Assembly (NCBI GenBank): GCA_964395845.1
Contig: CAYNCG010000015.1
Span: forward strand, 356-64,355
DNA length: 64,000 bases
Source of the DNA: an uncultured Isosphaeraceae bacterium
GTDB taxonomy: Bacteria > Planctomycetota > Phycisphaerae > Phycisphaerales > SM1A02
Direction of reading: 5' to 3'
Each line of letters opens with the position of its first letter. Within the stretch, counting starts at the first letter, position 1. Positions 4,943 through 26,965 of the stretch are shown piece by piece. The notes beneath the pieces were generated by a model, which saw only the letters and a program-made list of their open reading frames with translations, was not told where the DNA came from and ran no database searches. A program made the translations under genes and the position numbers.

Positions 4943-6271
4943 TCACAACAATTCGACCAACACCTCATCCGCTAACAATTGTCCCGCGCGGGTGAACCGC
5001 ACGCGTCCCTGGACCCGCTCGAGCAGTCCGCGGCCGATCGCCCGGTCGATCGCCTCCCGCCGGGCCGGCCCTCGGCCGGAGCGTGTGGCCGCTTCGATCA
5101 CCGCGTCGGGCACGCCCTCGCGCAGGCGGAGTCCGACCAGCAGGATCTCACCGGCGCGGGTGTCCGGATCGACCTCCTCGCAGTCCACGATCGGCGCCAT
5201 CCGATCCTCGGTCTCCGCGAGCCAGCGGGTCAGGTTCGGGACATTCTTCCAGCGGATCCCGGCGACATGGCCGCTCGCGCTCGGCCCAAGCGCCCACCAG
5301 GACTCGTTTCGCCAGTAGAGGAGATTGTGGCGGCATTCCTGACCGGGCTGGGCGAAGTTCGAGATCTCGTACTGCTCGAAGCCAGCCCGTTCGGTGGCGG
5401 CGAGCGTCGCCTCGTACATCGCCGCCTCGAGATCCTCGTCGCAGGGCTCGAACTGACCGAGCTCAAGGCGCTTGGTCATCGCCGTGTTCGGCTCGTAGGT
5501 GAGCCCGTAGCAGGAGAGGTGATCGGGTCCGCAGGCCATCGCCTGGGCGAGATCGCTTTCCCATTCGGCGAGCGTCGATCCGGGCACGCCAAAGATGAGG
5601 TCGAGGTTCAGACGCCGCAACCCAGCCCTGCGGAGCCGTTCGACCGCCCGGGGCACGCTCGCCGGGTCGTGCCAGCGCTCCAGCGTCTTCAGGTGGTGCG
5701 GGTGAAAGCTCTGGGCTCCGAGACTCACCCGGTTCACCCCCGACTCGACGAGGATCGCGGCGACCTCGTCCGTGACGGTCTCAGGGTTCGCCTCGACGGT
5801 CCATTCGATCGACGGGGAAAAGGCGAACCGCTCGGCGACGCGGGCGAGCGCCCGCCGCAGGAGATCCGGTCGGAGGAGCGTGGGCGTCCCGCCGCCGATG
5901 AAGATCGTCTCGAGCACACCCCCCCGCTCCGGCTGACCGATGCCTGCGTTGGCGGCCGCGTCGACCTCCGCCTCAAGCCGACTCAGGTACGCCGGCTGCT
6001 GGTCGGCGCGGTCGACGAAGGAGTAGAAGTCGCAGTAGTGGCACTTGTGGAAGCAGAAGGGCACATGGAGATAGAGCCCGCGGATCCGTGGGAACGGCTG
6101 CCCGGGTGCGACGCGCTGGCGAAGGACGAACCCGGCGCTGGTCGCCGCATGTGGATCGCCCCCATCGGCTCTGCCTCCGAGGCTCACGGCGGAGCCGAGC
6201 TGCGGAAGCGGATGGGAGAACGCCGCCCCGTCGGCGGTCGGTGAAGTCGGATCGGGTCGCTCGGTGCCCAC
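4943..6271 (-). CDS. hemW: Radical SAM heme chaperone HemW / oxygen-independent coproporphyrinogen oxidase-like
   Basis: Has the CxxxCxxC radical-SAM cluster motif (HVPFCFHKCHYCDF) and HemN-like downstream domains. Confidence 0.85.
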   Translation of the reverse strand: MGTERPDPTSPTADGAAFSHPLPQLGSAVSLGGRADGGDPHAATSAGFVLRQRVAPGQPFPRIRGLYLHVPFCFHKCHYCDFYSFVDRADQQPAYLSRLEAEVDAAANAGIGQPERGGVLETIFIGGGTPTLLRPDLLRRALARVAERFAFSPSIEWTVEANPETVTDEVAAILVESGVNRVSLGAQSFHPHHLKTLERWHDPASVPRAVERLRRAGLRRLNLDLIFGVPGSTLAEWESDLAQAMACGPDHLSCYGLTYEPNTAMTKRLELGQFEPCDEDLEAAMYEATLAATERAGFEQYEISNFAQPGQECRHNLLYWRNESWWALGPSASGHVAGIRWKNVPNLTRWLAETEDRMAPIVDCEEVDPDTRAGEILLVGLRLREGVPDAVIEAATRSGRGPARREAIDRAIGRGLLERVQGRVRFTRAGQLLADEVLVELL

Positions 6272-6319
6272 TGCGAGGGAGAGCGTAGCCGCCCGCGCGC
6301 CGCTGTCCCGGCGCGCTCG

Positions 6320-6556
6320 TTACGCGGCGTCCTTGTCGCGTTCCTTGTCCCGGTCCGGCTTGGCCGGGGCGGCCCGCGGCGCGGAGGCCGGAATCTTGAT
6401 GTTCGTCCCGCAGTTTCGGCAGCGGACGAGCTTCCCGCGGGCGTTGATCGGCACGGCGAGAATGCGCTGGCAATCAAGCTTTGGGCACTTGATGCGAACG
6501 ACATCATCACGGCCGCCATGGCCGGAGTTCGGTACGGATGATCCAGTCGTACTCAC
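6320..6556 (-). CDS. Small zinc-ribbon protein
   Basis: 78 aa with a CPKLDC ... CRNCG pair and a Lys/Asp/Arg-rich tail. It occupies an otherwise empty intergenic slot. Confidence 0.5.
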   Translation of the reverse strand: MSTTGSSVPNSGHGGRDDVVRIKCPKLDCQRILAVPINARGKLVRCRNCGTNIKIPASAPRAAPAKPDRDKERDKDAA

Positions 6557-6825
6557 GGGTATGCCCTGTCATCGGCCTACCGCTCGGGTCGCTTGAGGCC
6601 GGGTCGGACGCAAGCCCGCAATCCTCCGAAGCCGCGTGCGACCGCCCCAGAGCGTGGCGGCGCTTCCCGTACAATCGCCGCTTGGCCTCCGGCTCGACCA
6701 CGCCCACCAACCGCCCCCCCGGGGACGGGTGAGCGGGCGAGGGGAGCCACGCGTCCGCTCTGGCAGGCCCTCCCACGGTCCCTTTCCGGACGCTTCGCCC
6801 CGTCGACGATCCGCGCCACCGCCAC

Positions 6826-8232
6826 ATGACTCCTCCCGCCGCCGTCTCTCCCATCCGTCCGACCGCGCACTCCGCTGGGGAGCGCCGAGCCCCGCTCAAC
6901 GCCGCCGTCGTGGGCCTCCAGTGGGGCGATGAGGGCAAGGGCAAGATCGTTGACCTGCTCACCGCCCGCTACGACACGATCGTCCGCTACAACGGCGGCG
7001 CGAACGCCGGTCACACCGTCGTCGTGGGGGACCAGAAGTACGCACTCCACCTGATTCCCTCGGGCATCCTCTACCCCGAGAAGCTCAATGTCATCGGGAA
7101 CGGGACGGTCATCGATCCGGAGAAGCTGCTCGACGAAATCGACAAGCTCCGCGCTCGCGGCATCGCCGTGAACCACAATCTGCGGGTGAGCGACCGGGCC
7201 CATGTCGTCATGCCCTATCACAAGGAGCAGGACGCGGCCCTCGAAGACTTCCTGGCCTCGAAGTCCGGGAAGGACAACGGCGGCCTCTCGATCGGCACCA
7301 CCCGCCGCGGCATCGGCCCGGCGTACGCCGACAAGATCTCCCGCTCGACGGCGATCCGGGTCGGCGACCTCCTCGAACCGACCATTCTCCGCCGCAAGCT
7401 CGATGTCGTCTGCGGCATCCGCACGGCGGAACTCGAAGCCCTTGGCGTCCGCACCCGGCCGCTCCGCGCCGACGAGCTCGCCGAGCACTTCAGCGCGGTC
7501 GGCGAGCGGATCCGACCGCTCGTCACCGACACCGTCTACCTCCTGCATGATCGGCTCGCCCAGGGCAAGTCGCTTCTCTTCGAGGGGGCGAACGCGTGCC
7601 TCCTCGACATCGATCACGGCACCTATCCCTATGTGACGAGTTCGAACTGCTCGACCTTGGGCATCCCCGCCGGAACGGGCGTCCCCGGCAGTCGGATCGA
7701 CATCGTCTACGGGATCATGAAGGCCTACTCGACGCGGGTCGGCGCCGGTCCCTTCCCCACCGAGCAGCTCAACCCGATCGGCGACCGGATTCGGGAACGC
7801 GGTCGCGAGTACGGCACGACCACCGGCCGCCCGCGGCGCTGCGGCTGGCTCGATCTCGTCGCGGTGCGGTACTCGGCGATGATCGGCGGCGCCACCGCCA
7901 TCGCCTGCACCCTCTTCGATGTCCTGACCGGCTTCGACGAACTCAAGCTCTGCGTCGGCTACCGTCTCCCCGACGGCTCGACGACCGATCGCTTCCGGCC
8001 CGACGCCGACCGCCTCGGCCTCGTCGAGCCGATCTATGAGACCTTGCCCGGTTGGCAGGAAGAAATCCGCGATTGTGCGTCGCGATCCGCACTTCCGGCG
8101 AACGCCCGCCGCTACCTCGAGCGTATCGAGGAGCTCGTCGGGGTTCCGATCGACATCGTGAGCGTGGGGCCCGAGCGCACCCAGACCATCGCCGACCCGG
8201 CACGGATTGGCGAACTCGTCGACGCGCCGTGA
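6826..8232 (+). CDS. purA: Adenylosuccinate synthetase
   Basis: GLQWGDEGKGKIVD P-loop and full-length PurA-like sequence. A short N-terminal extension makes the start uncertain. Confidence 0.9.
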   Translation: MTPPAAVSPIRPTAHSAGERRAPLNAAVVGLQWGDEGKGKIVDLLTARYDTIVRYNGGANAGHTVVVGDQKYALHLIPSGILYPEKLNVIGNGTVIDPEKLLDEIDKLRARGIAVNHNLRVSDRAHVVMPYHKEQDAALEDFLASKSGKDNGGLSIGTTRRGIGPAYADKISRSTAIRVGDLLEPTILRRKLDVVCGIRTAELEALGVRTRPLRADELAEHFSAVGERIRPLVTDTVYLLHDRLAQGKSLLFEGANACLLDIDHGTYPYVTSSNCSTLGIPAGTGVPGSRIDIVYGIMKAYSTRVGAGPFPTEQLNPIGDRIRERGREYGTTTGRPRRCGWLDLVAVRYSAMIGGATAIACTLFDVLTGFDELKLCVGYRLPDGSTTDRFRPDADRLGLVEPIYETLPGWQEEIRDCASRSALPANARRYLERIEELVGVPIDIVSVGPERTQTIADPARIGELVDAP

Positions 8233-8288
8233 CGATCGCGTCAGCGCCACCGACTCCGCTTCCACCTGACGCTCCTCTCCCACCGCTC

Positions 8289-9086
8289 ATGACCCCTCCC
8301 GCGTCCGCAGCCTCTCCCTCGATCGCTCCGGGCGTCGCCACGGCCGCGTCGATCGCCGAGCCACCGCTCGATCCGGCCCGCATGCCGCGGCACATCGCCA
8401 TCATCATGGACGGCAATGGTCGGTGGGCGCAGCGCCGCGATCTGCCCAGGGCCTTGGGTCATCGGGCCGGGGCGAAGGCGGTGCTCGAGATCGTCGAGGC
8501 GTGCAAGCAGCTTGGGGTCGGGGCTCTGACGCTCTACTCCTTCTCGAGCGAGAACTGGAAGCGCCCGGCGGATGAGGTCGCGGCGCTCATGGAACTCTGC
8601 CAGGAGTTCATCCGCGCCCAGTGCGCGACGATGATCACCAACAACATCCGATTCCGCCGGATCGGACGACGCGAAGGGATGCCCGCGGAGGTCCTCGCGG
8701 CCCTCGACGAGGCGGAGCGTGCGACCGCCCACTGCACCGCACTGACCCTCTGTCTCGCCCTCAACTACGGTTCGCGGACCGAACTCGTGGACGCGGCGAG
8801 AGCGATCGCAGCCCGGGTCGCCCGGGGCGAACTGACGGTGGACGCGATCGACGAATCGACGATCGAGCGGCACCTCTACACCGCCGGCCTCCCGGACCCG
8901 GATCTCCTCATCCGGACCGCGGGCGAACGACGGATCTCCAACTACCTCCTCTGGCAGATCAGTTACGCCGAACTCCATGTCGCCGAGTGCCTCTGGCCCG
9001 ACTTCGGGCCGGAGCAACTCCGAGAGGCGATCCGAGACTTCGCCAGCCGCGAACGGCGATTCGGGGATATCCGGGCGAAGGCCTGA
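8289..9086 (+). CDS. uppS: Undecaprenyl (isoprenyl) diphosphate synthase
   Basis: Carries HIAIIMDGNGRWA and RTAGERRISNYLLWQ motifs. The ORF-track start at 8052 overlaps purA, so the in-frame ATG at 8289 was chosen. Confidence 0.85.
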   Translation: MTPPASAASPSIAPGVATAASIAEPPLDPARMPRHIAIIMDGNGRWAQRRDLPRALGHRAGAKAVLEIVEACKQLGVGALTLYSFSSENWKRPADEVAALMELCQEFIRAQCATMITNNIRFRRIGRREGMPAEVLAALDEAERATAHCTALTLCLALNYGSRTELVDAARAIAARVARGELTVDAIDESTIERHLYTAGLPDPDLLIRTAGERRISNYLLWQISYAELHVAECLWPDFGPEQLREAIRDFASRERRFGDIRAKA

Positions 9087-9671
9087 CCGCCGCCGGGAGG
9101 CTTCTCCCCAAGTCGGCCGCTGCCATTCATTTGTGGCCATTCTCGCGACTCGTCCATAGCAGATCGATGCGGCGACGAGTATTCTGCGGACAGCTCGGTC
9201 TGACGGCCGAGCGAGGTCCTTCACCGACCATCGGCCGCGTCGGCTTTGCCGGCGGATGGCCCGTACGGGTAGGCCTGGCGGCCGGAAGCACGCCAGTTCG
9301 GCCCGCGTCGGCGGTCGCACCGCGGCGTTCTCGCGCCGCGGGCGACGCCGCCGACCGCGCCCGCAGACTCCGGCACGGCCCATCCTGTCCCCATCCTCCC
9401 TCCCCACCCGTGGCGCAAGTCATTCGGGCTGCGGACGAGCAGAAAGGAACGCGCGGCCCGCGTCCGAGCGTCGCGAGACGACCGGACCGCGGCGAGCGGT
9501 GGCTGCGCGACGGTGTGTCCCCCGTCTCGTCTGTCCCCCGTCCGGCCCCGTCCGGCCCCGTCCGGCCCCCGTCCGGCCAGATTTCCAGACCCACCCGACA
9601 TGAGCATCGCCCCACCCGAGCTGGGTCCGACCCAGACGCCGTGGCAGGCGACACAGACTCAGGAGCCCCGC

Positions 9672-12623
9672 ATGCGGCAGCACTCGTCCGGCCTTTCGAC
9701 AGACCAGACGCCCTCGGCGAACCAGACCCCACCGCACTCGGAACCCTCCCACGCAGCGTCGCGCGGCGGCGCCGCGCTCCGTCGGCCCGCTCGCCGCCTC
9801 CCGCTGTTCTGCTGCGCGCCCGCGTTGGCGTTGAGCATCGCGATGATGCCGGCGTCGACGCTCGTCGGCGCCGATCTGCCCGGCTCGCCGAAGCTCACGC
9901 CGCTCACCGCCCCGAAGGCACTCGCGCCCAAGACGGGAAGCGCCCCGCTCGCCGGCGGCGCCGCCGCACAGGGCGCCGCGGCGCTCTCGCCCCTCGCCGA
10001 CGATCCCGCGAACGCCCTCGATCCGTTCGTCCCGATCGATGAGTCGCGACTCTCCGCGGCCACCCTCTCGATGATGACCGTGGGCTCGGTGATCGAACTG
10101 CCGACCGCCCAAGGCCCGCTTCGCATGCGGCTCATCGAGCGCGGTCGGACGAGCCTTGGCAGTGCGTCCTATGTCTTCCGCGGCGGACCCGACACCGATG
10201 CTCCCTTCGGCTCGAACGCCACGCTCGTCGTGCGCGACGGTCTCGTCGGCGGCTTCGTCCGTGGCATCGACGGCTTCGATGTGATCGTCACGCCGATCGA
10301 CGAGTGGCGTCAGTCGCTCGTCTTCCGGCCGAGCGCGATCGGCGACTGCGGCAACACGCCGGCGATGGGCAAGCCCTTCGATCCGAATGATCCGGCGAAC
10401 GATGATGCGGGTGACGGCGGCGTCGCCGGCGCCTGCAACGATCCGGCCTCGATCCAGGATGTCCTTGTCGTCTACACGCCGGCCGCGGCCGCCGCGAACG
10501 GCGGCTCGGTGGCCATCACGGCGCTCATCGAGGCCAGCATCCTCGATGCCAACATCGCCCTCAAGAACAGCGAAGCGCCGAACCGCCTCCGGCTCGTCTC
10601 GATCTACGGCTTCGACTTCCCCGAGTCGGGCGACATCTTCACCGACCTCGACACGCTCACCGATCCGGACGACGGCGTCGGTGACTTCGTGCACACGCTC
10701 CGCGACCTCTTCGCGGCCGACCTCGTTCAGCTCGTCGCCGACGCGCCCGGCGCCTGCGGCCTCGCGTGGCTCTTCGAGAATGACCCGAGCCGAGGCTTCA
10801 GCGTCGTCGATGCCGCGTGCCTCGCGAACTACACCCCGGCCCACGAGATCGGTCACAACTTCGGCGCCTGCCATGCGGTCGGCGACGGCGGTGGCTGCGA
10901 GTCGGGCGGCTACTTCCCCTTCTCGAACGGCTACCGCTTCATCGGCGACTCGAGCACCCTCTGGCGGACGGTCATGGCCTACGCCCCGGGAACGCGCATC
11001 CCCTACTTCTCGAATCCCGGGGTCGTGTACGACGGCGAGTCGGTCGGCATCGGCGGCTCGAGCCCGACCTCGACCGACAACGCGCGCACGATCGAGCTGA
11101 CCGCCGAAGCGGTCTCGAACTTCCGCTGCGACGGCGAACCGCCGAAGGACTGCAACGCGAACGGCCTGCCGGATCTCATCGATGTGCTCGACGGCTCGAG
11201 CGAGGACTGCAACGGCAACGGCATCCCGGACGAGTGCGACATCGGCGGCGGCTTCAGCCTCGACGAGAACAACGACGGCGTGCCCGACGAGTGCGCTGCC
11301 CTCCCGGCGAAGTTCTATCCGGAGGACGATGGCGATCCGCGGGTCCTCGACGCAGCAGGATTCGCCGTCGCGATCGGCCGCGGACTCGCTCCGGTCGGTA
11401 CCACCGTTCCGCTCAACGCCGTCGTCGGCGCCTTCGGTGACGACGAGGCGGGAGCCAATGTCGGAGCCGCCTATGTCTTCACGCCGCTCGGCGTGCAGCA
11501 GGCGAAGCTCCTCCCCGACGATCCCGATCCGCAGTCGAACTTCGGCCGCGCGGTCGACACCTGGTCCTTCATTCCCTCCGCGCTGACCCCGAAGCGCGAG
11601 TTCGCCGTAGCGGGCGCGTATCGCGCCGACGCCCTCGGCCTGAACGAGCGCGGGGCGGTCTATGTCTTCAGCTCGGACAACGACGGCGCATGGACGCAGC
11701 GGCTGAAGCAGATCGCCAGCGACGGCAAGGCCGGCGACTGGTTCGGCTTCTCCGTGAACATGACCCGCTCGCCCGCCGACAGCCAGCACACGCTCGTCGT
11801 CGGGGCCCCGAACGGGAACTCCGGCAAGGGCGCGGTCTACATCTACCGGTACCAGGACGCCAACACCACCACGCTCGCGAAGAAGCTGATCCTGCCGCTC
11901 TCCGATGTCGGCGCGGACTTCGGCTGGTCCCTTGCGACCGACAACTTCGTCACGCTCATCACGCCGAATCCGATCGCGATCACCCAACGGGCCATTCTCG
12001 TCGCCGGAGCTCCCGGCTTCAGCGATGACGCTGGCCGCGTGCGCGTCTTCGAACGGGCCACCACGCCGAACGCGAGCTATCCGAGCGCCGGCGTGACCAT
12101 CTCGCTCGGACCGGATCAGACCCAGGCCGGCGACCGCTTCGGCGAGGCCGTGGCGATCGCCGACAACTACCTCGTGATCGGCGCCCCGGGGCGCAACGAG
12201 GGGCGCGGCGCAGCGTATGTCTACGAGCGCACGAACCTCGGCGTTTGGGCGCCGCGGGTCGAGCTGACCTTCACCGACGGCAAGCCGAACGATCGGCTCG
12301 GCGCGGCGGTCTCGATCACGACCGCAACCGACGGCGCCCTCTGGGTCACCGTCGGTGCGCCGCGTTTCGACCGGCCGACCGCGAGCGGCACGCTCACCGA
12401 TGCCGGCACGGTCGTGGTGCTCCGCAAGCCGGCGAACTCGCCGACCTGGAGCATCATGAACGCGAACCTGCCGGGCGACATCGCCGCCGGCGACCAGTTC
12501 GGACAGTCGGCCTCGATCTACTCGAGCGGCGCGACCATCCGAGCCCTCATCGGCTCCCCCTTCGACGACGACTCCGGCATCAACTCCGGTTCGCTCTACA
12601 ACCTCGTGCCGACCCTTCCCTGA
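9672..12623 (+). CDS. Secreted metzincin (reprolysin/M12B-like) metalloprotease fused to FG-GAP (integrin-alpha-like) repeats
   Basis: HEIGHNFGACH zinc motif followed by a TVMAY Met-turn-like segment. Asp/Cys-rich DCNGNGIPDECD-type segments come next. These are followed by at least 6 FG-GAP-like repeats (GDWFGFSV, GADFGWSL, GDRFGEAV, NDRLGAAV, GDQFGQSA). The ATG at 9672 is preceded by AGGAG. A hydrophobic signal-like segment is present. Alternative starts exist at 9513 and 9600. Confidence 0.8.
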   Translation: MRQHSSGLSTDQTPSANQTPPHSEPSHAASRGGAALRRPARRLPLFCCAPALALSIAMMPASTLVGADLPGSPKLTPLTAPKALAPKTGSAPLAGGAAAQGAAALSPLADDPANALDPFVPIDESRLSAATLSMMTVGSVIELPTAQGPLRMRLIERGRTSLGSASYVFRGGPDTDAPFGSNATLVVRDGLVGGFVRGIDGFDVIVTPIDEWRQSLVFRPSAIGDCGNTPAMGKPFDPNDPANDDAGDGGVAGACNDPASIQDVLVVYTPAAAAANGGSVAITALIEASILDANIALKNSEAPNRLRLVSIYGFDFPESGDIFTDLDTLTDPDDGVGDFVHTLRDLFAADLVQLVADAPGACGLAWLFENDPSRGFSVVDAACLANYTPAHEIGHNFGACHAVGDGGGCESGGYFPFSNGYRFIGDSSTLWRTVMAYAPGTRIPYFSNPGVVYDGESVGIGGSSPTSTDNARTIELTAEAVSNFRCDGEPPKDCNANGLPDLIDVLDGSSEDCNGNGIPDECDIGGGFSLDENNDGVPDECAALPAKFYPEDDGDPRVLDAAGFAVAIGRGLAPVGTTVPLNAVVGAFGDDEAGANVGAAYVFTPLGVQQAKLLPDDPDPQSNFGRAVDTWSFIPSALTPKREFAVAGAYRADALGLNERGAVYVFSSDNDGAWTQRLKQIASDGKAGDWFGFSVNMTRSPADSQHTLVVGAPNGNSGKGAVYIYRYQDANTTTLAKKLILPLSDVGADFGWSLATDNFVTLITPNPIAITQRAILVAGAPGFSDDAGRVRVFERATTPNASYPSAGVTISLGPDQTQAGDRFGEAVAIADNYLVIGAPGRNEGRGAAYVYERTNLGVWAPRVELTFTDGKPNDRLGAAVSITTATDGALWVTVGAPRFDRPTASGTLTDAGTVVVLRKPANSPTWSIMNANLPGDIAAGDQFGQSASIYSSGATIRALIGSPFDDDSGINSGSLYNLVPTLP

Positions 12624-12676
12624 CGATCACCTGCCCGGTGTCCGATCCGATTCGCCGCATTCCTCACCTCCCCACC

Positions 12677-15673
12677 ATGCGACTCCCCGCCACTTTCGGC
12701 ACGCTTCTCTCGACCTTCGCGAGCCTCAGCTCCATCGCGATCGGGGCGTCGACGGCAAGCCTCCTTGCCCTGAGCCCCTCGGCGTACGCCGGCGACACTC
12801 CGGCCTCCTGCAACAGCGCCGAGCAGAGTTGCCTCGTGGTGAACCTGAAGGCCGGCGGCTGCAACGACGAGATCTGCTGCACGACCGTCTGCACGATCGA
12901 GCCGGCCTGCTGTTCGACCGCCTGGGACGAACTCTGCGTCGCCCTCGCGGTCAAGTTCTGCAGCTCCTGCGGCATCTCGGAGAACTCCTGCTTCGGCAAG
13001 AACATCACCGAGGGGTGCAATGAGCCGAACTGCTGCAACTATGTCTGCTCGCTGCCCGGCTTCGAGGACTGCTGCACCGTCCAGTGGGACGCCAACTGCG
13101 TGAAGATGGCGACGAAGGTCTGCGTCGGCTGCGGTCAGCCCGGCGCCGGAGACTGCAACAAGGTCCATGAGGGCGCCGGCTGCAACAACGCCGAGTGCTG
13201 CGACCAGGTCTGCACCGTCGACGCGACCTGCTGTCAGGTCTCGTGGGACGAACTCTGCGTGCAGTGGGCCGCGTTCTTCTGCCCGGGCTGCGGCGATCCA
13301 GTCGCGGGCAACTGCTGCGTCGCCCACACCACCCCCTTCTGTGACGATGTCGATTGCTGCGAGGCGGTCTGCGAGGTCGACGATTTCTGCTGCACCGTCC
13401 GCTGGGATGTGAACTGCGTCGAGCTCGCCAGCAGCGTCTGCACGCTCGCGAACTGCCTCTGCGGCGATCCGAACGCCGGAAGCTGCAAGAGCGTCCATCC
13501 GACCCCGGGCTGCAACGATCTCGAGTGCTGCACGGAAGTCTGCCTCTTCGACGACTTCTGCTGCATCGTCGCGTGGGACCAGGCGTGCAAGAACGCCGCG
13601 GAGGCCCTCTGTGCGACGAACCCGAACTGCGGCGATGTCGGCAAGGGCTCCTGCTTCGTCCGCCACGACACCCCAGGCTGCGATGACGCCGGCTGCTGCG
13701 AGGCGGTCTGCGCGGTCGATCCGAACTGCTGCCTCTTCAAGTGGGACCAGCAGTGCGCGGATCTCGCCCCGCTCATCTGCACCGACTGCGGCGACATCGA
13801 CGCCGGCTCCTGCTTCGAACCGCACGGCTCGCCCTCCTGCGCGAACGAGGAGTGCTGCGAGGCGGTCTGCAAGATCGATCCCTTCTGCTGCTCGGACCTG
13901 TGGGACACCGTCTGCGTGAGCCTCGCGGTGGCGGGCTGCGATGATCCGATCGGCAACTGCGGCGCGAATCTCGCCCGCTCCTGCTTCGTGCCCTCCGCCT
14001 ACCTGCCCGGCTGCGAAGACGCCGGCTGCTGCGTCGATGTCTGCACGACGCTCGATCCCTATTGCTGCGATGTCCGCTGGGACGCGGCCTGCGTCGAGCA
14101 CGCCTTCAGCCTCTGCGACACCGCCGTCGGCTGCCCCAAGCGCGGCGCCTGCCTCATCCCCCATGTGAACCCCGGCTGCAACGATCCGATCTGCTGCACC
14201 GCGGTCTGCCAGATCGATCCGATCTGCTGCCTGAACACCTGGGACGACAACTGCGTCAGCATCGCCGTCGGCGTCTGCTTCGGTCAGTCCGCCTGCCCGG
14301 GCGTCGACACCTGCTGGGATTCGCACGGCACCCCGGGCTGCGAAGATCCGGCGTGCTGCAATGTCGTCTGTGCCGTCGATCCGGTCTGCTGCATCGAGGC
14401 GTGGGACCAGAACTGCGTCGCGGTCGCCCAGGCCCGCTGCGTGCCGGAGGGTGACTGGAACTGCCCCTGCATCGGCAGTTGCTTCGAGCAGCACGGAAAC
14501 CCCGGCTGCGACGACACCGCCTGCTGCTCGGGCGTCTGCTCGATCGATCCGCTCTGCTGCACGGTGGCGTGGGACGCCGACTGCGCCCTCATCGCCCGCG
14601 TGGTCTGCTGCGGCGACATCGGTTGCGGAAACTACTGCGCCGGCACCTGCTTCGACAGCCACGATCAGCCCTTCTGCAACGACGCCGCCTGCTGCGACGC
14701 CGTCTGCATGATCGATCCCTTCTGCTGCAGCAACCGCTGGGACGGCGTCTGCGCCGAGTTCGCCTTCGAGCGTTGCAGCTCGCTCTGCGGCCTGCCGGAC
14801 GGCGGAAGCTGCTTCGTCCCGAAGATCGCTCCGGGCTGCTCGGATCGAAGCTGCTGCGATGCGGTCTGCGCCGCCGACCCCATCTGCTGCACGACGACCT
14901 GGGATGAGGCCTGCGTCGAGCTTGCCCAGGGCAAGCGCGGACGCCGCGGCCTCTGCGAGCCGCCGGAATGCGGTTCCTTCGCCGCCGGCGACTGCTGCGA
15001 GGCCAAGGATGTCCCGGCCTGCAACGACGAGCAGTGCTGCGAGGCGGTCTGCCGTCAGGATCCCTTCTGCTGCGACAGCCAGTGGGATGAGACCTGCGCC
15101 GGTCTCGCCCGCAAGACCGCAGCCTGCGACTGCGTCTCGGAGTGCGGCGATGCCTGCGCCGGTTCCTGCTGCGAGGCGAAGGACACGCCGCTCTGCGACG
15201 ACGAGGCCTGCTGCGAAGCCGTGTGTGCGCTCGATCCCTTCTGCTGCGAGCTCGAGGGCGGAGCGTGGGACGCGGTCTGCGCCTCCCTCGCCGCGTCGAC
15301 CGACGCATGCGGCGATGTCTGCCCGCAGCCGGAGTGCGGTGACATCACCGCAGGCGACTGCTGCACGCCGCACGCCGGTCCGGCCTGCAACGACCTGAGC
15401 TGCTGCGATGCGGTCTGTGCGATCGACAGCTTCTGCTGCGAGTCGCAGTGGGACATCGCGTGTGCGATCCTGGCCGGCGAGGAGTGCCCGGAGTGCCAGT
15501 CGAAGCTCTTCTGCGGCTCGGCGTCGGCGGGCGACTGCTTCACCACGCACCCGACACCCTACTGCGACAACTTCGGCTGCTGCTCCTTCGTCTGCACCAT
15601 CGATCCGAGCTGCTGCTCGGTCGATTGGGACACGACCTGCGTTGATCTCGCCGCGGCGTTCTGCGGCGGGTGA
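12677..15673 (+). CDS. Secreted cysteine-rich protein made of 17 tandem ~50-58 aa repeats (CC-x2-VC-x2-D-x2-CC-x3-WD-x2-C core)
   Basis: The ATG at 12677 opens a signal-peptide-like N-terminus (MRLPATFGTLLSTFASLSSIAIGAS...AYAG). I counted 17 occurrences of the CC-x3-WD-x2-C core, with about ten Cys per repeat. The upstream part of track ORF 12245.. overlaps the previous gene and was discarded. Confidence 0.8.
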   Translation: MRLPATFGTLLSTFASLSSIAIGASTASLLALSPSAYAGDTPASCNSAEQSCLVVNLKAGGCNDEICCTTVCTIEPACCSTAWDELCVALAVKFCSSCGISENSCFGKNITEGCNEPNCCNYVCSLPGFEDCCTVQWDANCVKMATKVCVGCGQPGAGDCNKVHEGAGCNNAECCDQVCTVDATCCQVSWDELCVQWAAFFCPGCGDPVAGNCCVAHTTPFCDDVDCCEAVCEVDDFCCTVRWDVNCVELASSVCTLANCLCGDPNAGSCKSVHPTPGCNDLECCTEVCLFDDFCCIVAWDQACKNAAEALCATNPNCGDVGKGSCFVRHDTPGCDDAGCCEAVCAVDPNCCLFKWDQQCADLAPLICTDCGDIDAGSCFEPHGSPSCANEECCEAVCKIDPFCCSDLWDTVCVSLAVAGCDDPIGNCGANLARSCFVPSAYLPGCEDAGCCVDVCTTLDPYCCDVRWDAACVEHAFSLCDTAVGCPKRGACLIPHVNPGCNDPICCTAVCQIDPICCLNTWDDNCVSIAVGVCFGQSACPGVDTCWDSHGTPGCEDPACCNVVCAVDPVCCIEAWDQNCVAVAQARCVPEGDWNCPCIGSCFEQHGNPGCDDTACCSGVCSIDPLCCTVAWDADCALIARVVCCGDIGCGNYCAGTCFDSHDQPFCNDAACCDAVCMIDPFCCSNRWDGVCAEFAFERCSSLCGLPDGGSCFVPKIAPGCSDRSCCDAVCAADPICCTTTWDEACVELAQGKRGRRGLCEPPECGSFAAGDCCEAKDVPACNDEQCCEAVCRQDPFCCDSQWDETCAGLARKTAACDCVSECGDACAGSCCEAKDTPLCDDEACCEAVCALDPFCCELEGGAWDAVCASLAASTDACGDVCPQPECGDITAGDCCTPHAGPACNDLSCCDAVCAIDSFCCESQWDIACAILAGEECPECQSKLFCGSASAGDCFTTHPTPYCDNFGCCSFVCTIDPSCCSVDWDTTCVDLAAAFCGG

Positions 15674-15676
15674 TCG

Positions 15677-16999
15677 TCAGCGGTCGGCAAGGGTGTCAGG
15701 GAGCGGCTGGGCGATGAGCGCCAGCCGCTCGACGCCCACGCGCAGAAGGAAGCAGTCGAGTTCCCGCTCGCCGGTTGGCGCGGATCCCCCTCCACCTGAG
15801 AGGGTCCGGGCGATCCGCTGCGTCCAACGATCCGCATCCGCCACGCCGCCGCGGGTGCGCACGCGGGCCCGCTGCGCGCCGCGACGCTTGAGCTCCGCGA
15901 CGACCGCATCCTCGTCGAAGGGCACGACGGCGAGAATCCGCGCCCGTTCGAGCCACGGCGACGGAGCGATCGCCTCCGCGGTGAGAATCCCAAGCCCCGC
16001 CGCAGGCTCGGCGAGTTGGGCCAAGCGGGCGAAGTGTCCGAGCAGCCGGCTTCGCTCGAGCGCAGGATCGGGCACGGCGAGCATCGCGGCGAAGCGATCG
16101 ACGCACGGGACGCCCTCGATCGGGCCTCGGATCGTGACGACATCGTCGGGGTCGCTGCCAACGCGCGTCGCCTGACGGCCGCCATCGGCCTCGCGGAGTC
16201 GACCCCACCACGCGACGAGCTGCACCAGCGTTCCCTCATCGCTGATCCACTCGAGTTCCGCATCGTCGGGGAGGAGCGCGGGATCGAGCCCCGGACCGAG
16301 CTTCAACGCCGCTCCCGTCGCGCGGCGGGCGACCGCGATACACACCTCAAGCGACGGCTCATGGATCGGCGTCAGGGTACGGGCGCCGCGGGCCTCGTCC
16401 CGTCGGGCCGGATCGCAGTGGACGAAGGCACCGTCAAGCGCTCCGTCGTGCAGGAGGTCACGAACATCCGCGATCCGCGCGTCGCAGCGGGCGTTCGTCG
16501 CCGCCATCCACGCCCGAACGGGTGAACGATCGACGGCGATCACCCGCACGCGGGGTGCGGGCCGCTCGGTCCCGCGGGCGAGTTCGGCGAGCGCCATCGC
16601 GTCGCCTCCCATGCCGGAGCAGAGATCCCAGACCCTGATCTCCTCCGCGGTCCGCTCGATGCGCGCGATCGCTCGAGCGAACCGCCGGGCCTTCCAGAGC
16701 GCGACCCGTTCACCGCTCGCCTGCTCGACCGCCTGGCGGTCGCAGACGAGCCCGTCGGCAGCGGCGAATTTCGCCCGGGCCCGCAGGCGTGCCTCCGCGA
16801 GTTGGAGGGCCATCGTGACGGAGGTCGGATCCCACCCGCGACGAAGCCGCTCGATGGCCGCGGCGCTGACCCCGGTCCGGACGACCTCGGCGGCCGCGGC
16901 GAGCAGTTCGGTCTGGGCGAGGAGCTCGCGCCAACGCGCAACCTCCGGGTCGCCCGCTGATCCCTCCGCCATCGAGCTGCCCGGGCCATCCGCTGACAT
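15677..16999 (-). CDS. Class I SAM-dependent methyltransferase (THUMP-like C-terminal region)
   Basis: VWDLCSGMGGDAMALA SAM-binding motif I and a CDPARR-type motif. 440 aa. Confidence 0.7.
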   Translation of the reverse strand: MSADGPGSSMAEGSAGDPEVARWRELLAQTELLAAAAEVVRTGVSAAAIERLRRGWDPTSVTMALQLAEARLRARAKFAAADGLVCDRQAVEQASGERVALWKARRFARAIARIERTAEEIRVWDLCSGMGGDAMALAELARGTERPAPRVRVIAVDRSPVRAWMAATNARCDARIADVRDLLHDGALDGAFVHCDPARRDEARGARTLTPIHEPSLEVCIAVARRATGAALKLGPGLDPALLPDDAELEWISDEGTLVQLVAWWGRLREADGGRQATRVGSDPDDVVTIRGPIEGVPCVDRFAAMLAVPDPALERSRLLGHFARLAQLAEPAAGLGILTAEAIAPSPWLERARILAVVPFDEDAVVAELKRRGAQRARVRTRGGVADADRWTQRIARTLSGGGGSAPTGERELDCFLLRVGVERLALIAQPLPDTLADR

Positions 17000-17234
17000 C
17001 CGCGCGGCATCCTACGGGAGGGCCCTCCGCTCGGGAGGACCGAGAAGGAACCGGGACAGGCGAGCACCCCCCGCAACCGGGAATCGCACCTGAACCGTCG
17101 GAGATCCGGAGCTCGGAGTCAAGCATGTCCGTGAATGACCCGATGGACGCATGTGGGTGTTTGTACGGAGGTCCGCCTGCGCGCGTCGCGGGAGGGTCCG
17201 AGGACAAGCCGCACAGCTCCCACCGCTTCGCGCG

Positions 17235-19568
17235 ATGACGCTCTCCCGACGAACCATGTTCCTCACCGGCGGTGCCCTGCTTGCGCTCATGGCAGGCCTG
17301 TGGGTCGTCGTCGCTGCGGTCATGCTGAGCGGCTTCTGGAAGGTCGAACAGCGCGGCACGAGTCTCCATGTCGAACGGGTGGTCGAAGCGATCGACCTCG
17401 CCGCGGATACCCTCGCGACGAAGCTCTCCGACTGGTCGATGTGGGACGACACCTATGCCTTCGTCGCCGATCGAAACGAGACCTACGCCGCATCGAATCT
17501 GACCGCCAAGGGACTGGACACCCTGGGCCTGCACGCGATGGCGTTTTTCGGCCCCGACGGAACGCTCGTCCATGCCATCACGCTCATGCCAGCCGATGGG
17601 GATGGCGAAGGCGAACCGACCCTCGCGCACGGCGCACCCGAGGGACTCCTCCGACAACTCGCCGCCCATCCGGATCTCCTCGTCAGCGGAACGGGCGAAG
17701 AGGATGTCCGCGCCGGCGTTACGAGTTGGTCAGACAGGATCTACCTCATCGCCTCGCGTCCCATCCTGACCAGCGAGGCGCTCGGCCCGAGTCGCGGGGC
17801 GCTTCTCTTCGTCTCGGAACTCACCGACGAGCGGATCGCGGCGATGGGCGAGCGCTTGCGCATGGCCCTCGCGATCAAGCCGCTCGCCGCAGACGATCCG
17901 CGCCGCTCCGAGGCGCTCCCCGAACGCCCGACGATCGAGCCCATCGATGTGAGCTCGATCCGGGGCAAGACGATCATGGCCGACATCCGCGGCGAGCCGG
18001 CCTTCGCGATCGATGTCGCCGTCCCGCGCTTCGTCCATGCCCAGGCCCTCGCGACCAGCAAGCTCATGGGGATCACGCTCGCGATCGCGGCCTGCGTCGC
18101 GGTGGCGGTCACGATTCTCGTCCTCCGTTTCACCGTCCTCGGACGCCTCGCCCAGCTTCACCGCGAGGTCGGATCGATCGGCGGGACGACGCCTTCGGAC
18201 CGGTCCGGCGACCTGAGCGGCACGCTCATGGCAAACATCACCGCGGACAGTCGGGTGACGGTCGAGGGTCAGGATGAGCTCAGCCATCTCGCCGCGACGC
18301 TGAACGGACTCTTTTCGCGCATTGCGGACGCCCACAGCGACCTCGCCAGCGCGCGGGCCGCGGCCGAGCGGGCGAACCGCGCGAAGAGCGAGTTTCTCGC
18401 CAACATGTCGCACGAGGTGCGCACGCCGCTCACCGCGATCCTCGGATTCGCGGATCTGCTCGCGGAGGCCGGTCATGTGGACCATGCCACGCGCGAGGGG
18501 CTCGACACGGTTCGTCGCAACGGCCGACACCTGCTCGCCGTCATCAATGACATCCTCGACCTCTCGAAGATTGAGGCGGGCCGCATGGATGTCGAGACGC
18601 TCCCCTGCTCGCCGATCCTGCTCGCCCGCGAGGTCATCGATCTCCTCCGCGACCGGGCGACGCAGAAGGGACTGACCCTCGATCTCACGATCGACGGACG
18701 CGTCCCGAGCGTGGTGACGACGGATCCGCTTCGCTTCCGTCAGATTCTCCTCAACCTCACCGGCAACGCCCTCAAGTTCACGCCGAGCGGCGGCGTCACG
18801 CTGCGGATGTCCTACTCCGAGAGTGGTCCCACCGACGCGCCGCGACTGCTCGTTGACATCTGCGACACCGGCATCGGCGTCACCAAGGAGCAGGAGGAAC
18901 GCCTCTTCCGCGCCTACGGACAGGCCGAGACCTCGACCGCGCGGCAGTTCGGCGGCACCGGCCTCGGATTGACGATCAGCCGCAAGCTCGCCACCCTGCT
19001 CGGCGGGGATCTGACCCTTCATGCGACCGGCCCGAATGGCTCGACCTTCCGCCTCAGCGTGGCCGCCGGCCCGATCGCCGAGGACATCGAGTTCGTCACC
19101 CAGACCACCGCAGAGGCCGCCGCGGCCTGCTCGACGAAGGCCCCGCCGCCGGCAGCGCTCTCGATCGACCTGACCGGCCTGACCATCCTGCTCGCCGAAG
19201 ATGGCCCCGACAACCAGCGGCTCCTCGGATTCGTCCTCCGCAAGGCCGGAGCGACGGTCGAGATCGTCGGCGATGGGCGACGGGCCGTCGACGCGGTGCT
19301 CGCCGCACGCCAGGCGCAGCGGCCCTTCGACCTCGTCCTGATGGACATTCAGATGCCGCTCATGGACGGCTTTTCGGCCACCCGCGCCCTCCGTGCGGCT
19401 CGCATCACGACGCCCATCGTGGCCCTCACCGCTCACGCCATGGAAGGCGACCGCGCAGCGTGTCTCGCGGCGGGCTGCGATGACTACGCGTCCAAGCCGA
19501 TCGATCGGACCTCGCTGCTGCAGACATGCCGCCGCGTCGCCCTCGGGGAGCGCCGCGCCGCCGCATAG
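17235..19568 (+). CDS. Hybrid sensor histidine kinase/response regulator with CHASE4-like sensor domain
   Basis: N-terminal TM followed by the DWSMWDDTYAFV sensor motif. H-box MSHEVRTPL, G-box GGTGLGLTIS, and a C-terminal receiver domain (DLVLMDIQMPLMDG). Confidence 0.85.
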   Translation: MTLSRRTMFLTGGALLALMAGLWVVVAAVMLSGFWKVEQRGTSLHVERVVEAIDLAADTLATKLSDWSMWDDTYAFVADRNETYAASNLTAKGLDTLGLHAMAFFGPDGTLVHAITLMPADGDGEGEPTLAHGAPEGLLRQLAAHPDLLVSGTGEEDVRAGVTSWSDRIYLIASRPILTSEALGPSRGALLFVSELTDERIAAMGERLRMALAIKPLAADDPRRSEALPERPTIEPIDVSSIRGKTIMADIRGEPAFAIDVAVPRFVHAQALATSKLMGITLAIAACVAVAVTILVLRFTVLGRLAQLHREVGSIGGTTPSDRSGDLSGTLMANITADSRVTVEGQDELSHLAATLNGLFSRIADAHSDLASARAAAERANRAKSEFLANMSHEVRTPLTAILGFADLLAEAGHVDHATREGLDTVRRNGRHLLAVINDILDLSKIEAGRMDVETLPCSPILLAREVIDLLRDRATQKGLTLDLTIDGRVPSVVTTDPLRFRQILLNLTGNALKFTPSGGVTLRMSYSESGPTDAPRLLVDICDTGIGVTKEQEERLFRAYGQAETSTARQFGGTGLGLTISRKLATLLGGDLTLHATGPNGSTFRLSVAAGPIAEDIEFVTQTTAEAAAACSTKAPPPAALSIDLTGLTILLAEDGPDNQRLLGFVLRKAGATVEIVGDGRRAVDAVLAARQAQRPFDLVLMDIQMPLMDGFSATRALRAARITTPIVALTAHAMEGDRAACLAAGCDDYASKPIDRTSLLQTCRRVALGERRAAA

Positions 19569-19621: not shown

Positions 19622-20684
<1,063 letters not shown>

Positions 20685-20713
<29 letters not shown>

Positions 20714-21068
20714 TGGGCGTATGTGATGGGTCAGTGACGGCCTCGTGTCGTGCAAGCGACCGCCAGTGGCTCACGATGTCCGGCGAGACTCCGGCGGCTC
20801 CGCACTCAGGACACACCGAGATGCCGTCCTCCGGCTGACCGAGCTGGTGGAGACAGAGCGGGCAGAGGTGATACCCAGCCTCGGCAGCACGGCGATGAAG
20901 CCTGCGCATCCGTATGCGCGTCACGCTTGACGAGAGAGGCCGCAGGACGAGCACGAGTGCCAGCACGACCACGATCGACGCGGTTGGCCACACCAGAAAC
21001 GCAACGATCGATGCGATGACCAACGCTGCGAACCAGACGAGGAATCCGAAAAACAACGGCGAGGCCAT
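20685..21068 (-). CDS. Small membrane protein with C-terminal zinc-ribbon (CPLC ... CPECG)
   Basis: A hydrophobic N-terminus (two TM-like segments) followed by CPLCLHQL...CPECG. The start was set at an internal ATG (MASPLFF). The 3' end overlaps the convergent DHS gene and runs through a 24-bp tandem duplication. Confidence 0.45.
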
Positions 21069-21245
21069 CGTGCGCGGCTCGTTGTACACGACCGGGCGGC
21101 CGCGCTCCGCCGCCGAGTCGCGCCGCTCTGCGACCGCTTGCCGCGCGGGCGTGCGGCAGCCGCCGCACACCGCGGGGAGGACGAGTCGATTGTCCCACAC
21201 GCCGCAGCAGGGACGGGCTGCATTTCGTTTCGTTTCCACGGGCAG

Positions 21246-21602
21246 TCACCCAAAGAAGCAGCAGAGCTGGTCATCAGCAACAACCATCAGCGCCTCGAGC
21301 AGACCGCTGTGGAGCGGCGCCGGCTCGTAGAGATACCACTTGAGATCGCCGCGCATCCAGTACAGATTCCACTGGTCCTGCGTGCGAACATACCGGATCC
21401 TCGCGATTGGATGCTGGCGAAGGATCGTCTTTTCCTTCCAGTGCGGCCGGATCTCAAAGAGCTCGACTGTGTGACCGTCGGTCGTGAACCCGAAGTCGAG
21501 CTGACTGCGGATGTGCTCCGGCGGCCGACGCTTCGAGAAAAACCAATCCATCGCCGTCTGATTGACTGCCAGCTCGTGCTCGGTGAAGGCCATGGCGTTC
21601 AT
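21246..21602 (-). CDS. DUF3024 family protein
   Basis: 118 aa with the typical pattern RRPPEHIRSQLD...VELFEIRPHW...WNLYWMRGDLKWYLYEP...CFFG. It overlaps the upstream ORF by ATGA (translational coupling). Confidence 0.7.
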   Translation of the reverse strand: MNAMAFTEHELAVNQTAMDWFFSKRRPPEHIRSQLDFGFTTDGHTVELFEIRPHWKEKTILRQHPIARIRYVRTQDQWNLYWMRGDLKWYLYEPAPLHSGLLEALMVVADDQLCCFFG

Positions 21603-22036
21603 CGTATCGACGGCGATGGAAAGTGCCGCGCAGCGTTTGGCTGCGACACGAGAGAGAGGTCGAAGCCGACCGACATGTCGAACGTGACGGTGTGCCGCCC
21701 TCCGCTCGCGCCCGTCGCTGGCTCTACCTCAATGTCGAAGATGACGTTCTGGGTTCCGAATTCTCGGAGGTTCACATCTGCGACGTCGTTGAAGCGGAGC
21801 CCCACGAGTGGGCAGGAAAGTGCGGACAAGGGGTCGGAGGGCGTCCCCGGATAGGACCAAGGAATCTGACCTTCAAGCGTCAGTGTCACATGTCGTCCAG
21901 GCAGACACTCAGCGGTGACGGCAACGATCTCCGCGTCATGAAGGGAGGGCCACTCGCCGTAGCGAAGGCGAATCGCATCGGCATTGTCGGTGATCGCTTC
22001 CAATGGGTGTCGCATCGGATCTGCCTGAGTTGTCAT
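21599..22036 (-). CDS. Imm50-like immunity protein (polymorphic-toxin immunity family)
   Basis: The YGEWPSLHDAEIVAV motif and the later LRFNDVADVNLREFGTQNVIFDIEVE segment resemble Immunity protein 50. Confidence 0.55.
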   Translation of the reverse strand: MTTQADPMRHPLEAITDNADAIRLRYGEWPSLHDAEIVAVTAECLPGRHVTLTLEGQIPWSYPGTPSDPLSALSCPLVGLRFNDVADVNLREFGTQNVIFDIEVEPATGASGGRHTVTFDMSVGFDLSLVSQPNAARHFPSPSIR

Positions 22037-22184
22037 GAGCGAAAGAGCACCCCATGTCGTGACGAAGAGGAACGGGGGTGTGGGCTCGTCGCGATCGGGA
22101 TATGGGGTGGGGTATGGGTCTTTGCAGGCCGGTCACGACTTGCGGCGCAGGGGCCCCTGTGCGCGGAACGCCCGAGGACTCCTG

Positions 22185-22418
22185 CTACTGCGCGGCGAAA
22201 TGGTGGCCGGCATACTGCTCAAGGAATCCGCAGGACGAGCAGCGAAACACTCCGATCGGAATAGTGTGCGAGGTGGAAGACCTCGTACCAATCCAGAATG
22301 ACTTCTGGGGAACACCAGGAACCCAGTGCGAAATCAGTCGACCGCCGTGGGAGTGGTCAAGAACGAATCCCTGCTCCATCTGACCGTTGCACTTGGGGCA
22401 TGTGAGCTGCGTAGACAT
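22185..22418 (-). CDS. Small zinc-ribbon protein
   Basis: 77 aa with CPKCNG ... CSSCG pairs at both ends. Coding-like composition within the island. Confidence 0.6.
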   Translation of the reverse strand: MSTQLTCPKCNGQMEQGFVLDHSHGGRLISHWVPGVPQKSFWIGTRSSTSHTIPIGVFRCSSCGFLEQYAGHHFAAQ

Positions 22419-22460
22419 CGATGCGGATCCTCCTCGAACCGGCCTGGTGGTCGGAGATGC

Positions 22461-22563
22461 GTGTCACGGCTCGAACTGTGCCGCACGCACCCGCGGCCGA
22501 GGCCGTGGGCCGCTCGCCAATGGTAACGCCGAAGATGCGGTCGGCATGAACGATGCGTTCGAC
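22461..22563 (-). repeat. attC-like imperfect palindrome, family copy I
   Basis: About 103 bp, alignable to the copies at 25536, 28013, 28533 and 29622 (shared core TGCCGCACGCAC..GCGGCCGAGGCCGT.GGCC...GTCGGCATGA.CGATGCGTT). On the coding strand the ends are GTCGAAC ... GTGACAC. It lies between the stop of ORF 22579..22968 and the start of ORF 22185..22418. Confidence 0.55.
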
Positions 22564-22578
22564 CGGGCCGGTCGAACG

Positions 22579-22968: not shown

Positions 22969-23208
22969 CGATATCTCCTTGGCGGCAGAACCTGTCACGA
23001 TAGAAGCCCCCGCCTCGATAAGTGTAACGACGGCGTTGGCTGGTCGCAATCACGGTTCGGGCGCTGGCAGGTTGGTCACCGCCTACTGCATATGTGTTGT
23101 TGCGGGCTTACCGGCGGCTTCGGCAAATGGTTCCTACAGGCCGAACGCCGCCCGCGGCCTACTCGCTTCTGCACGAAGGGTCCGGGGCTTCCGGTCTGTA
23201 GGAATCCC

Positions 23209-23700: not shown

Positions 23701-23715
23701 GGCTCTACCGACCGT

Positions 23716-25529: not shown

Positions 25530-25535
25530 GAATCT

Positions 25536-26023: not shown

Positions 26024-26034
26024 GTGATCGAACA

Positions 26035-26957: not shown

Positions 26958-26965
26958 CGCATTGC

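Follow-up and report, generated by a model that had tools for sequence, protein, structure and literature searches.

A conserved array of 17 cysteine-rich modules in Phycisphaerales, a putative extracellular scaffold encoded beside an FG-GAP/M12B metalloprotease gene

Introduction

SCREPs, in which a signal peptide precedes at least two tandem cysteine-rich domains, are a class of proteins reported in bacteria and eukaryotes (PMC6262176). The repeat protein described in this study, encoded at positions 12677-15673 (+) of a 64,000-nucleotide stretch of DNA (the window) from an uncultured bacterium of the order Phycisphaerales (contig CAYNCG010000015.1, assembly GCA_964395845.1), has this architecture in its 'pure domain repeat' form, with a heuristically predicted signal peptide and 17 tandem modules of about ten Cys each. 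As far as is known, the characterised SCREPs are toxins or inhibitors of animals with few domains, unlike a bacterial protein of 17 modules and about 100 kDa, and the class is an architectural one, not a homologous family. The kind of protein is already known, that of the tandem disulfide-rich extracellular scaffold or bacterial SCREP.

Within the same phylum, the YTV proteins of Planctomycetales are likewise secreted and built from cysteine-rich repeats. A structural role in the cell envelope has been proposed for YTV proteins, and their genes have been reported in Planctomycetales only, not in early-diverging lineages (PMC8567305). YTV proteins are defined by a repeated YTV motif in a Cys/Pro-rich chain and by recovery from detergent-resistant wall preparations. 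The repeat protein contains no YTV motif, and no sequence relationship to the YTV cell-wall protein was detected. In eukaryotic EGF, LDL-A and granulin arrays, as well as in chlamydial OmcB, short modules held mainly by disulfides form rigid extracellular rods or cross-linked envelope layers. The repeat protein shares this design principle; similarity in sequence or fold was not detected.

The ADAM and snake-venom reprolysins combine an M12B protease with non-catalytic cysteine-rich modules, and a similar combination is found here in two neighbouring genes, and in one chain in P0137 and other proteins. The ADAM disintegrin and ADAM_CR domains were rejected as relatives of the module: PF00200 and PF08516 do not match, Foldseek gave no match in the PDB, where structures of ADAM and snake-venom metalloproteases are to be expected, and the modelled module is helical with a different Cys pattern. 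Cellulosomal scaffoldins and the 'planctosome' are also comparable, in that tandem non-catalytic modules, sometimes with a dockerin of their own, lie near dockerin-like enzymes. Cohesins (PF00963), however, are Cys-poor beta-sandwiches of about 140 aa whose binding of dockerins depends on Ca2+. The cohesin-like role suggested by the initial annotation, which was made from the DNA letters and a list of open reading frames (ORFs), is not borne out as far as sequence and fold are concerned, as no cohesin match was obtained in Pfam at E <= 10 and the modules are predicted to be helical, at about 55 aa and 10 Cys; a scaffoldin-like role of the array may still apply as a minority hypothesis.

Results

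The repeat protein contains exactly 17 CC-x3-WD-x2-C cores, spaced 53-61 aa apart, one of which carries a 7-residue insert (CCELEGGAWDAVC). Cut after the last Cys of each unit, the protein falls into 17 units that are 53-61 aa long and contain 9-13 Cys, and ten Cys positions (C1 to C10) are canonical, in the pattern C..C..C..CC..C..CC..C..C. Their consensus is C-G-x5-G-x-C-x3-H-x2-P-G-C-x-D-x2-CC-x2-VC-x2-D-P-x-CC-x3-WD-x2-C-x3-A-x3-C, with one invariant Trp per module and a His that is often conserved in each. Linkers, measured between the last Cys of one module and the opening Cys of the following one, can be as short as 2 residues. The canonical C10 is displaced into the linker in R13-R15. 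Extra Cys occur in several linkers of R11-R16 (14441-15487), for example in VVCCGDIGCGNYCAGTC and ACDCVSECGDAC. No second copy of the module was found elsewhere in the window.

The units are 30-60% identical to each other in protein (mean 43%) and about 60-75% in DNA, and Tandem Repeats Finder detected no array at the unit period in the repeat gene. Therefore, the array is old, and a recent tandem amplification is excluded by the same two results. The initial annotation had described a 998-aa ORF with 17 tandem repeats of about ten Cys, diverged at the DNA level. The ORF is borne out by an uninterrupted translation with a stop codon, the repeat number by the core count and the alignment, and the divergence by the DNA identities and the silence of Tandem Repeats Finder; the proposed consensus was essentially right against the alignment of the 17 units, and the estimate of one Cys in six residues is close to the 182 counted (18.2%, or about 1 residue in 5.5).

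The pairing of the Cys was deduced from the joint loss of canonical positions among 3,139 module copies from 264 proteins, aligned to the module profile. C2 and C3 are lost together (phi 0.71), as are C6 and C8 (phi 0.65), while loss of C5 accompanies loss of C1 (odds ratio 13) and loss of C4 accompanies loss of C10 (odds ratio 7.7). C7 and C9, which are missing from practically no copy, would be paired with each other by elimination. Together these observations suggest a map of five disulfides per module, C1-C5, C2-C3, C4-C10, C6-C8, and C7-C9. It fits the predicted geometry, in which helix 1 (C4 to C6) is antiparallel to helix 3 (C9 to C10), and helix 2, carrying C7 and C8, would bridge helices 1 and 3. 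Since pairwise loss is predicted by disulfides and not by thiolate metal clusters, the Cys of the module appear to form disulfides rather than metal clusters. To our knowledge, the connectivity 1-5, 2-3, 4-10, 6-8, 7-9 and the Cys spacing match no described domain.

A full-length AlphaFold2 model based on 60 orthologues had a mean pLDDT of 88.2 and a pTM of 0.78, and a model of two modules (aa 313-421; 51 aligned module pairs) had a pLDDT of 93.6. Since the pTM of 0.78 extends across 17 modules, the geometry between modules is taken as confidently predicted. Each module is predicted to begin with a loop region, after which come three helices of about 10, 4, and 10 residues. Three conserved Asp (in C-x-D, D-P, and W-D) stand directly before the three predicted helix starts, at N-cap positions, and this placement explains their conservation without metal binding. 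Foldseek returned 0 matches in the PDB at E <= 10 for both the full-length and the two-module models, the latter having been searched as well because of our own concern that masking for low complexity might affect a 17-fold repeat; nothing significant was found in the viral BFVD (all E >= 1.8). Modelling of two to three repeats, suggested with the initial annotation, gave in this way a confident helical model with no relative in the PDB, and the module may be regarded as a candidate new small-domain fold.

Among about 5.8 billion proteins searched, 596 homologues of the repeat protein were found. The 120 listed are 40-91% identical to it over nearly the full length, most of them have 17 cores, and their sources, where named, are metagenome-assembled genomes (MAGs) of Phycisphaerae, Phycisphaerales, or Planctomycetota. 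A locus scan, with one genome per species and a 9-sequence alignment, gave 79 loci, all in MAGs of lakes, rivers, and seas; no carrier genome found comes from a cultured strain. Among the clades of the carriers is CL500-3 of the Phycisphaerales, a dominant planctomycete group in lakes according to one study (PMC6461901). By a simple regular expression, 17 cores are present in 41 of 59 genomic loci and 14-20 in the remaining ones. In orthologues at least 57% identical to the repeat protein, module i best matches module i, and more distant orthologues are largely colinear. Therefore, from this module-by-module correspondence and the fixed count, the 17-module array predates the divergence of these lineages.

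Against the closest orthologue (locus L085, 91% aa identity), dN/dS is 0.11 (dN 0.041, dS 0.37). Across 60 orthologues, the Cys of the query are 97% conserved, compared with 41% for other residues. The non-Cys positions conserved at 90% or above belong to the framework (G, P, V, D, W, and A), with isolated exceptions such as R434 and H496, and no conserved functional patch outside the framework residues is visible across these orthologues. The repeat gene is a real one, maintained by purifying selection. The earlier description of an old, selectively maintained array is upheld by the fixed count of 17, the positional orthology of the modules, and the dN/dS value; the gene is intact in about 60 species, and the alternative of a pseudogene in relatives did not materialise.

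In about 60 species-level genomes, an orthologue of the repeat gene occupies the same fixed place next to purA, uppS, and hemN. The order in the window is a hemN-like gene (-), purA, uppS, a 1036-aa ORF, the repeat gene, and a convergent 440-aa gene. The 1036-aa ORF (the partner) encodes a secreted M12B (reprolysin-like) metalloprotease with an intact zinc motif, HEIGHNFGACH (HExxHxxGxxH), a dockerin-like DCNGNGIPDECD motif, and an integrin-alpha-like FG-GAP beta-propeller. The dockerin-like motif falls below detection by Pfam Dockerin_1 at E <= 0.001. The maximal ORF has 1036 aa, compared with 944-955 aa in orthologues, and the true start codon is probably downstream of 9513. No promoter-like or terminator-like site was found in the 53-nt spacer before the repeat gene, which from its sequence is compatible with co-transcription of the two genes.

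Orthologues of the repeat gene occur in two forms. In the short form of about 1000 aa, to which the window gene belongs, an FG-GAP partner lies immediately upstream in 31 of the 35 loci with a short N-terminus; two of the four loci without a detected partner are on truncated contigs, and five more partner-bearing loci were mis-binned as 'long' by the ORF-extension heuristic. Across the short-form loci the identity of the partner drops to about 30%, with adjacency retained. The long form, of 1300-1500 aa, has an N-terminal dockerin (Pfam E 7e-8 in P0044) and an extension of 150-500 aa, directly follows uppS or purA, and lacks the partner gene in 19/19 genuine cases. The partner gene and the fused dockerin-containing head are mutually exclusive alternatives across loci. 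In an estuarine MAG (L012), the partner (5461-7494, +) has no protease domain: a single Cys module is joined directly to the FG-GAP propeller, and the 17-module gene comes next. Since this partner keeps the propeller and not the protease, the propeller is the constant companion of the short array.

A derivation of the long-form extension from the reprolysin/FG-GAP partner was rejected, as BLASTP of P0044 against the partner showed no similarity. The sole FG-GAP-related upstream protein met in this connection, that of L012, is encoded by an ORF of its own. A lamin-tail-like 'SEIR...YVEIR' was seen by eye in the extension, which has about 300 aa in these cases (P0044, P0079, and P0028; L003 and L004), with no support from Pfam or PDB sequences. 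Some long forms have Pro/Lys-rich or pre-peptidase-like C-terminal tails.

The family identity of the module was searched in several collections. The whole protein, three modules, and one module gave no match at E <= 10 in NCBIfam or in a copy of Pfam-A without the PF26780 model. Among PDB sequences, the whole protein matched nothing, and the 17-module profile matched only an aldolase over 16 residues, by chance (E 0.44). The models for the Myxococcus cysteine-rich repeat and Dicty_CTDC had 0 matches to the repeat protein (Pfam and NCBIfam, E <= 10), and the module showed no similarity to CBM or hevein families in Pfam, NCBIfam, or Foldseek. All 120 listed homologues carry PF26780 in precomputed annotation. 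Where orthologues were looked up, the entry is named DUF8252, with matches described as 'faint' (P0010, P0044, and P0024) or 'weak' (P0079 and P0001), each copy scoring below or close to the threshold. The repeat module is probably the same as, or closely related to, DUF8252 and would be catalogued at best under this newer Pfam entry as a domain of unknown function (DUF). No mention of PF26780 or DUF8252 was found in a literature search, and no function or structure is attached to the entry. The initial annotation had recognised no named domain; this agrees with the absence of any characterised family, the empty single-repeat scan of Pfam and NCBIfam, and a DUF8252 label, weak or faint on orthologues, as the sole assignment.

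The module itself is widespread. Searched against 1.84 billion cluster representatives, the profile of the 17 modules matched 4,222 proteins at E <= 1e-3, 512 of them at E <= 1e-30, and the best 150 matches have 4-33 modules each. Among 77 module proteins scanned with Pfam, Dockerin_1 is present in 19, reprolysin-type M12B in 5, trypsin-like domains in 5, and M43 in 2, and FGE-sulfatase, C-type lectin, and proprotein-convertase P-domains in single proteins. P0137, annotated as an M12 family metallopeptidase in a Planctomycetota MAG, has 12 modules and a dockerin-like segment. A paralogue in a related MAG (L077) has an M43-like zincin followed by 3 modules, a C-type lectin, 2 modules, and a dockerin. 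In a Flavobacteriales MAG, a T9SS-sorted protein of 1879 aa (P0207) has 23 modules, many of which are 6-Cys half-modules keeping the DPFCC-x3-WD-x2-C part alone, and a distant protein of 2359 aa (P0127) has 33 module copies and 15 separate Dicty_CTDC repeats. Therefore, from these fusions and the occurrence outside Planctomycetota, the module is a mobile extracellular building block that is not confined to one phylum.

The repeat gene is read in the plus frame, where the G+C content at third codon positions (GC3) is 0.90. An antisense ORF of 984 aa (12596-15550) was rejected as a high-GC shadow that mirrors the 90% GC3 of this frame, and a longer TTG-started ORF from 12245 as an unlikely start overlapping the upstream gene. 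At the N-terminus (MRLPATFGTLLSTFASLSSIAIGASTASLLALSPSAYA, followed by GD), Arg2 and a hydrophobic stretch of about 30 residues are followed by A-Y-A and then G at residues 36-39, and residues 1-39 are the sole low-confidence part of the structure model (pLDDT <50). By this heuristic signal-peptide call, the repeat protein is likely exported. The mature protein would have 960 aa and about 100 kDa, and it is very acidic, with 145 D+E and 33 K+R. Reading of the sequence, up to its end in ...AAFCGG, revealed neither an anchor nor a lipobox, membrane segment, or C-terminal sorting signal. The features of the locus are listed in Table 1.

Table 1. Features of the repeat-protein locus, in positions of the window
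Feature	Position	Strand	Evidence or remark
hemN-like radical SAM gene, synteny marker	4943..6271	-	
purA (adenylosuccinate synthetase), synteny marker	6826..8232	+	
uppS (undecaprenyl diphosphate synthase), synteny marker	8052..9086	+	
Upstream partner gene, M12B metalloprotease + FG-GAP	9513..12623	+	Pfam matches, motif scan, synteny in ~36 species
Spacer, partner gene to repeat gene, 53 nt	12624..12676	+	
Repeat-protein coding sequence, stop codon included	12677..15673	+	Translation, GC3, homologues, dN/dS
Predicted Sec signal peptide, aa 1-38, cleavage after A-Y-A	12677..12790	+	Heuristic: hydropathy, AxA motif; pLDDT <50 at residues 1-39
Modules R1-R5, aa 41-312	12797..13612	+	Module boundaries, alignment
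Modules R6-R7, aa 313-421	13613..13939	+	Fragment modelled separately, pLDDT 93.6
Modules R8-R13, aa 422-754; extra linker Cys in R11, R12	13940..14938	+	
Modules R14-R17, aa 755-998; longer units, 61 aa	14939..15670	+	
Convergent 440-aa gene, function unknown; conserved downstream in short-form loci	15677..16999	-	

In the surroundings of the repeat gene, its stop and that of the convergent 440-aa gene are 3 nt apart, and a simple terminator scan of 15671-15679 was empty. The orthologue of the 440-aa gene at locus L005 has a weak Methyltransf_15 match. Two genes downstream of the repeat gene, 17151-19568 (+) encodes a hybrid histidine kinase with a CHASE4 sensor and a C-terminal receiver; other loci gave no sign of a link between it and the repeat gene. 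Farther along the window, the G+C content at 20000-32000 is 0.60-0.64 versus 0.67-0.71 in the flanks. Possibly an accessory island, this region encodes a RES-domain toxin-like protein (28631-29695, -), a DUF5063 protein, and a CAAX-protease-like protein, besides several ORFs that match nothing in Pfam.

Discussion

We give about an even chance to a reading in which the array serves as scaffold or stalk in an assembly, proteolytic or adhesive, at the cell surface or outside the cell, to which the FG-GAP/M12B partner also belongs. A possible scheme can be described as follows. The acidic protein of about 100 kDa would be exported through Sec, and removal of the signal peptide would leave only 17 tightly concatenated modules of about 55 aa. 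In each module, five disulfides would hold the loop and the three short helices together. Since the modules would be held by disulfides and joined by linkers as short as 2 residues, a stiff rod of fixed length is the most likely outcome, and it would be chemically robust outside the cytoplasm. The module would be passive, a structural spacer or scaffold neither catalytic nor metal-binding, and the array would work with the FG-GAP propeller/M12B metalloprotease encoded immediately upstream. In sister lineages without the partner gene, the dockerin-containing N-terminal extension fused to the array would take its place. The mutual exclusion of partner and head, together with the fusions of protease and module in single chains (an argument of the Rosetta-stone type), points to a likely functional link with the FG-GAP/M12B protein. 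From the observations we infer that the protein is exported, forms disulfides, is rigid, and is coupled physically or functionally to the partner. Of the roles initially suggested, a disulfide-knotted extracellular scaffold is the one best in line with the evidence.

Several points weigh against this scaffold or stalk. Conserved adjacency is no proof of physical interaction, and locus L067 has a short form without the partner. The module copies are phylogenetically non-independent, so that the P-values of co-loss are inflated, although the pattern is coherent; the C7-C9 pair was assigned by elimination alone; and both the disulfide map and the rod shape are drawn from inference, not from model coordinates. 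The extra Cys in several linkers (R11-R12 and R14-R16) fall outside the pairing scheme and may pair between modules or between molecules. In addition, the acidic composition could reflect cation binding, and the fixed count of 17 and the purA/uppS/hemN locus shared by about 60 species might indicate a core envelope function more specific than that of a spacer.

A bolder version of the scaffold or stalk, in which the array and its propeller partner (or, in sister lineages, the fused dockerin-containing head) make up a so far undescribed order-wide surface machine of aquatic Phycisphaerales and a new helical fold with five disulfides serves as a docking rod of fixed length, be it a scaffoldin independent of cohesins or an envelope strut, that sets the distance between metalloprotease and cell, is speculative and rather improbable.

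The core envelope role, in which the protein is a disulfide-cross-linked component of the wall or surface layer of Phycisphaerales, comparable to YTV and to OmcA/OmcB in Chlamydiae, is likewise rather doubtful. The fixed locus and the fixed number of modules speak for it, and the product of the neighbouring uppS gene makes the lipid carrier for envelope polymers. Extra, odd Cys in the linkers could make intermolecular bridges, yet intramodule pairs account for almost all Cys. The absence of YTV reported for early-diverging planctomycetes would leave this role unfilled there (PMC8567305). However, the sequence offers none of the anchors or sorting signals looked for on reading it (lipobox, C-terminal signal, and membrane segment included), and multidomain enzymes that look soluble commonly contain the same module.

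It is unlikely that the array is an analogue of scaffoldin, in which the modules dock dockerin-type or propeller domains and organise up to 17 secreted enzymes in a 'planctosome'-like manner. In its favour, the array is sometimes fused to a dockerin of its own (long forms P0044 and P0079), the adjoining M12B protease has a dockerin-like motif, and the partner in L012 combines one module with the FG-GAP propeller. Moreover, one study put forward the hypothesis that the related CL500-3 clade has a complex of cohesins and dockerins, with M12B reprolysin-like peptidases and an anchor of lamin-tail domains, although it names neither this protein nor cysteines (PMC6461901). The module has neither cohesin homology nor a cohesin fold, and the motif of the window protease falls short of the Dockerin_1 threshold given above. 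Outside the Cys the module surfaces are poorly conserved, with no patch beyond the framework, which would be unexpected for 17 specific docking sites.

Distinctly less probable is a ligand-binding adhesin, whose modules would bind a polysaccharide, a particle surface, or a mineral and hold either the cell or its enzymes on the substrate. A C-type lectin, a galactose-binding-like domain, and proteases are found together with the module, which also occurs in the T9SS-sorted Flavobacteriales protein, and the very acidic array offers one invariant Trp per module. Judged from the secondary structure of the model, however, this single Trp probably lies in the core, against the disulfides, and neither similarity to CBM or hevein families nor conserved surface residues were found.

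Metallothioneins contain CxC/CxxC thiolate clusters without disulfides, are usually cytosolic, and are poor in aromatic residues; the repeat protein was rejected as a member by its paired Cys loss, invariant Trp, predicted signal peptide, and differing Cys pattern. A high-capacity metal-binding or redox-buffer protein of this type, as put forward in the initial annotation, and to which the Cys content, the frequent His of the modules, and the many Asp/Glu would be suited, is very improbable, since Cys are lost in pairs and not singly or in clusters, the canonical module has an even number of them, conservation is confined to the framework with Asp at helix N-caps, the metal-free AlphaFold2 fold is confident with its conserved Trp, the signal peptide predicts an oxidising compartment, and CxC/CxxC clusters are absent.

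Conclusions

In the literature and the PDB searched, no description was found of the fold, the proposed connectivity, an order-wide 17-module orthologue, or the coupling to an FG-GAP/M12B protein. The module occurs in over 4,000 protein clusters, so that one solved structure would annotate a large part of metagenomic 'dark matter' and characterise a DUF, and, if the rod is truly rigid and stable, it may serve as a possible engineering scaffold. With a gene conserved across the order, a size of about 100 kDa, and about 85 predicted disulfides, and with an integrin-like propeller/ADAM-like protease partner conserved alongside a fixed module count, the repeat protein offers an entry point to how these abundant, uncultured Phycisphaerales of fresh and marine waters build their surface or organise extracellular proteolysis.

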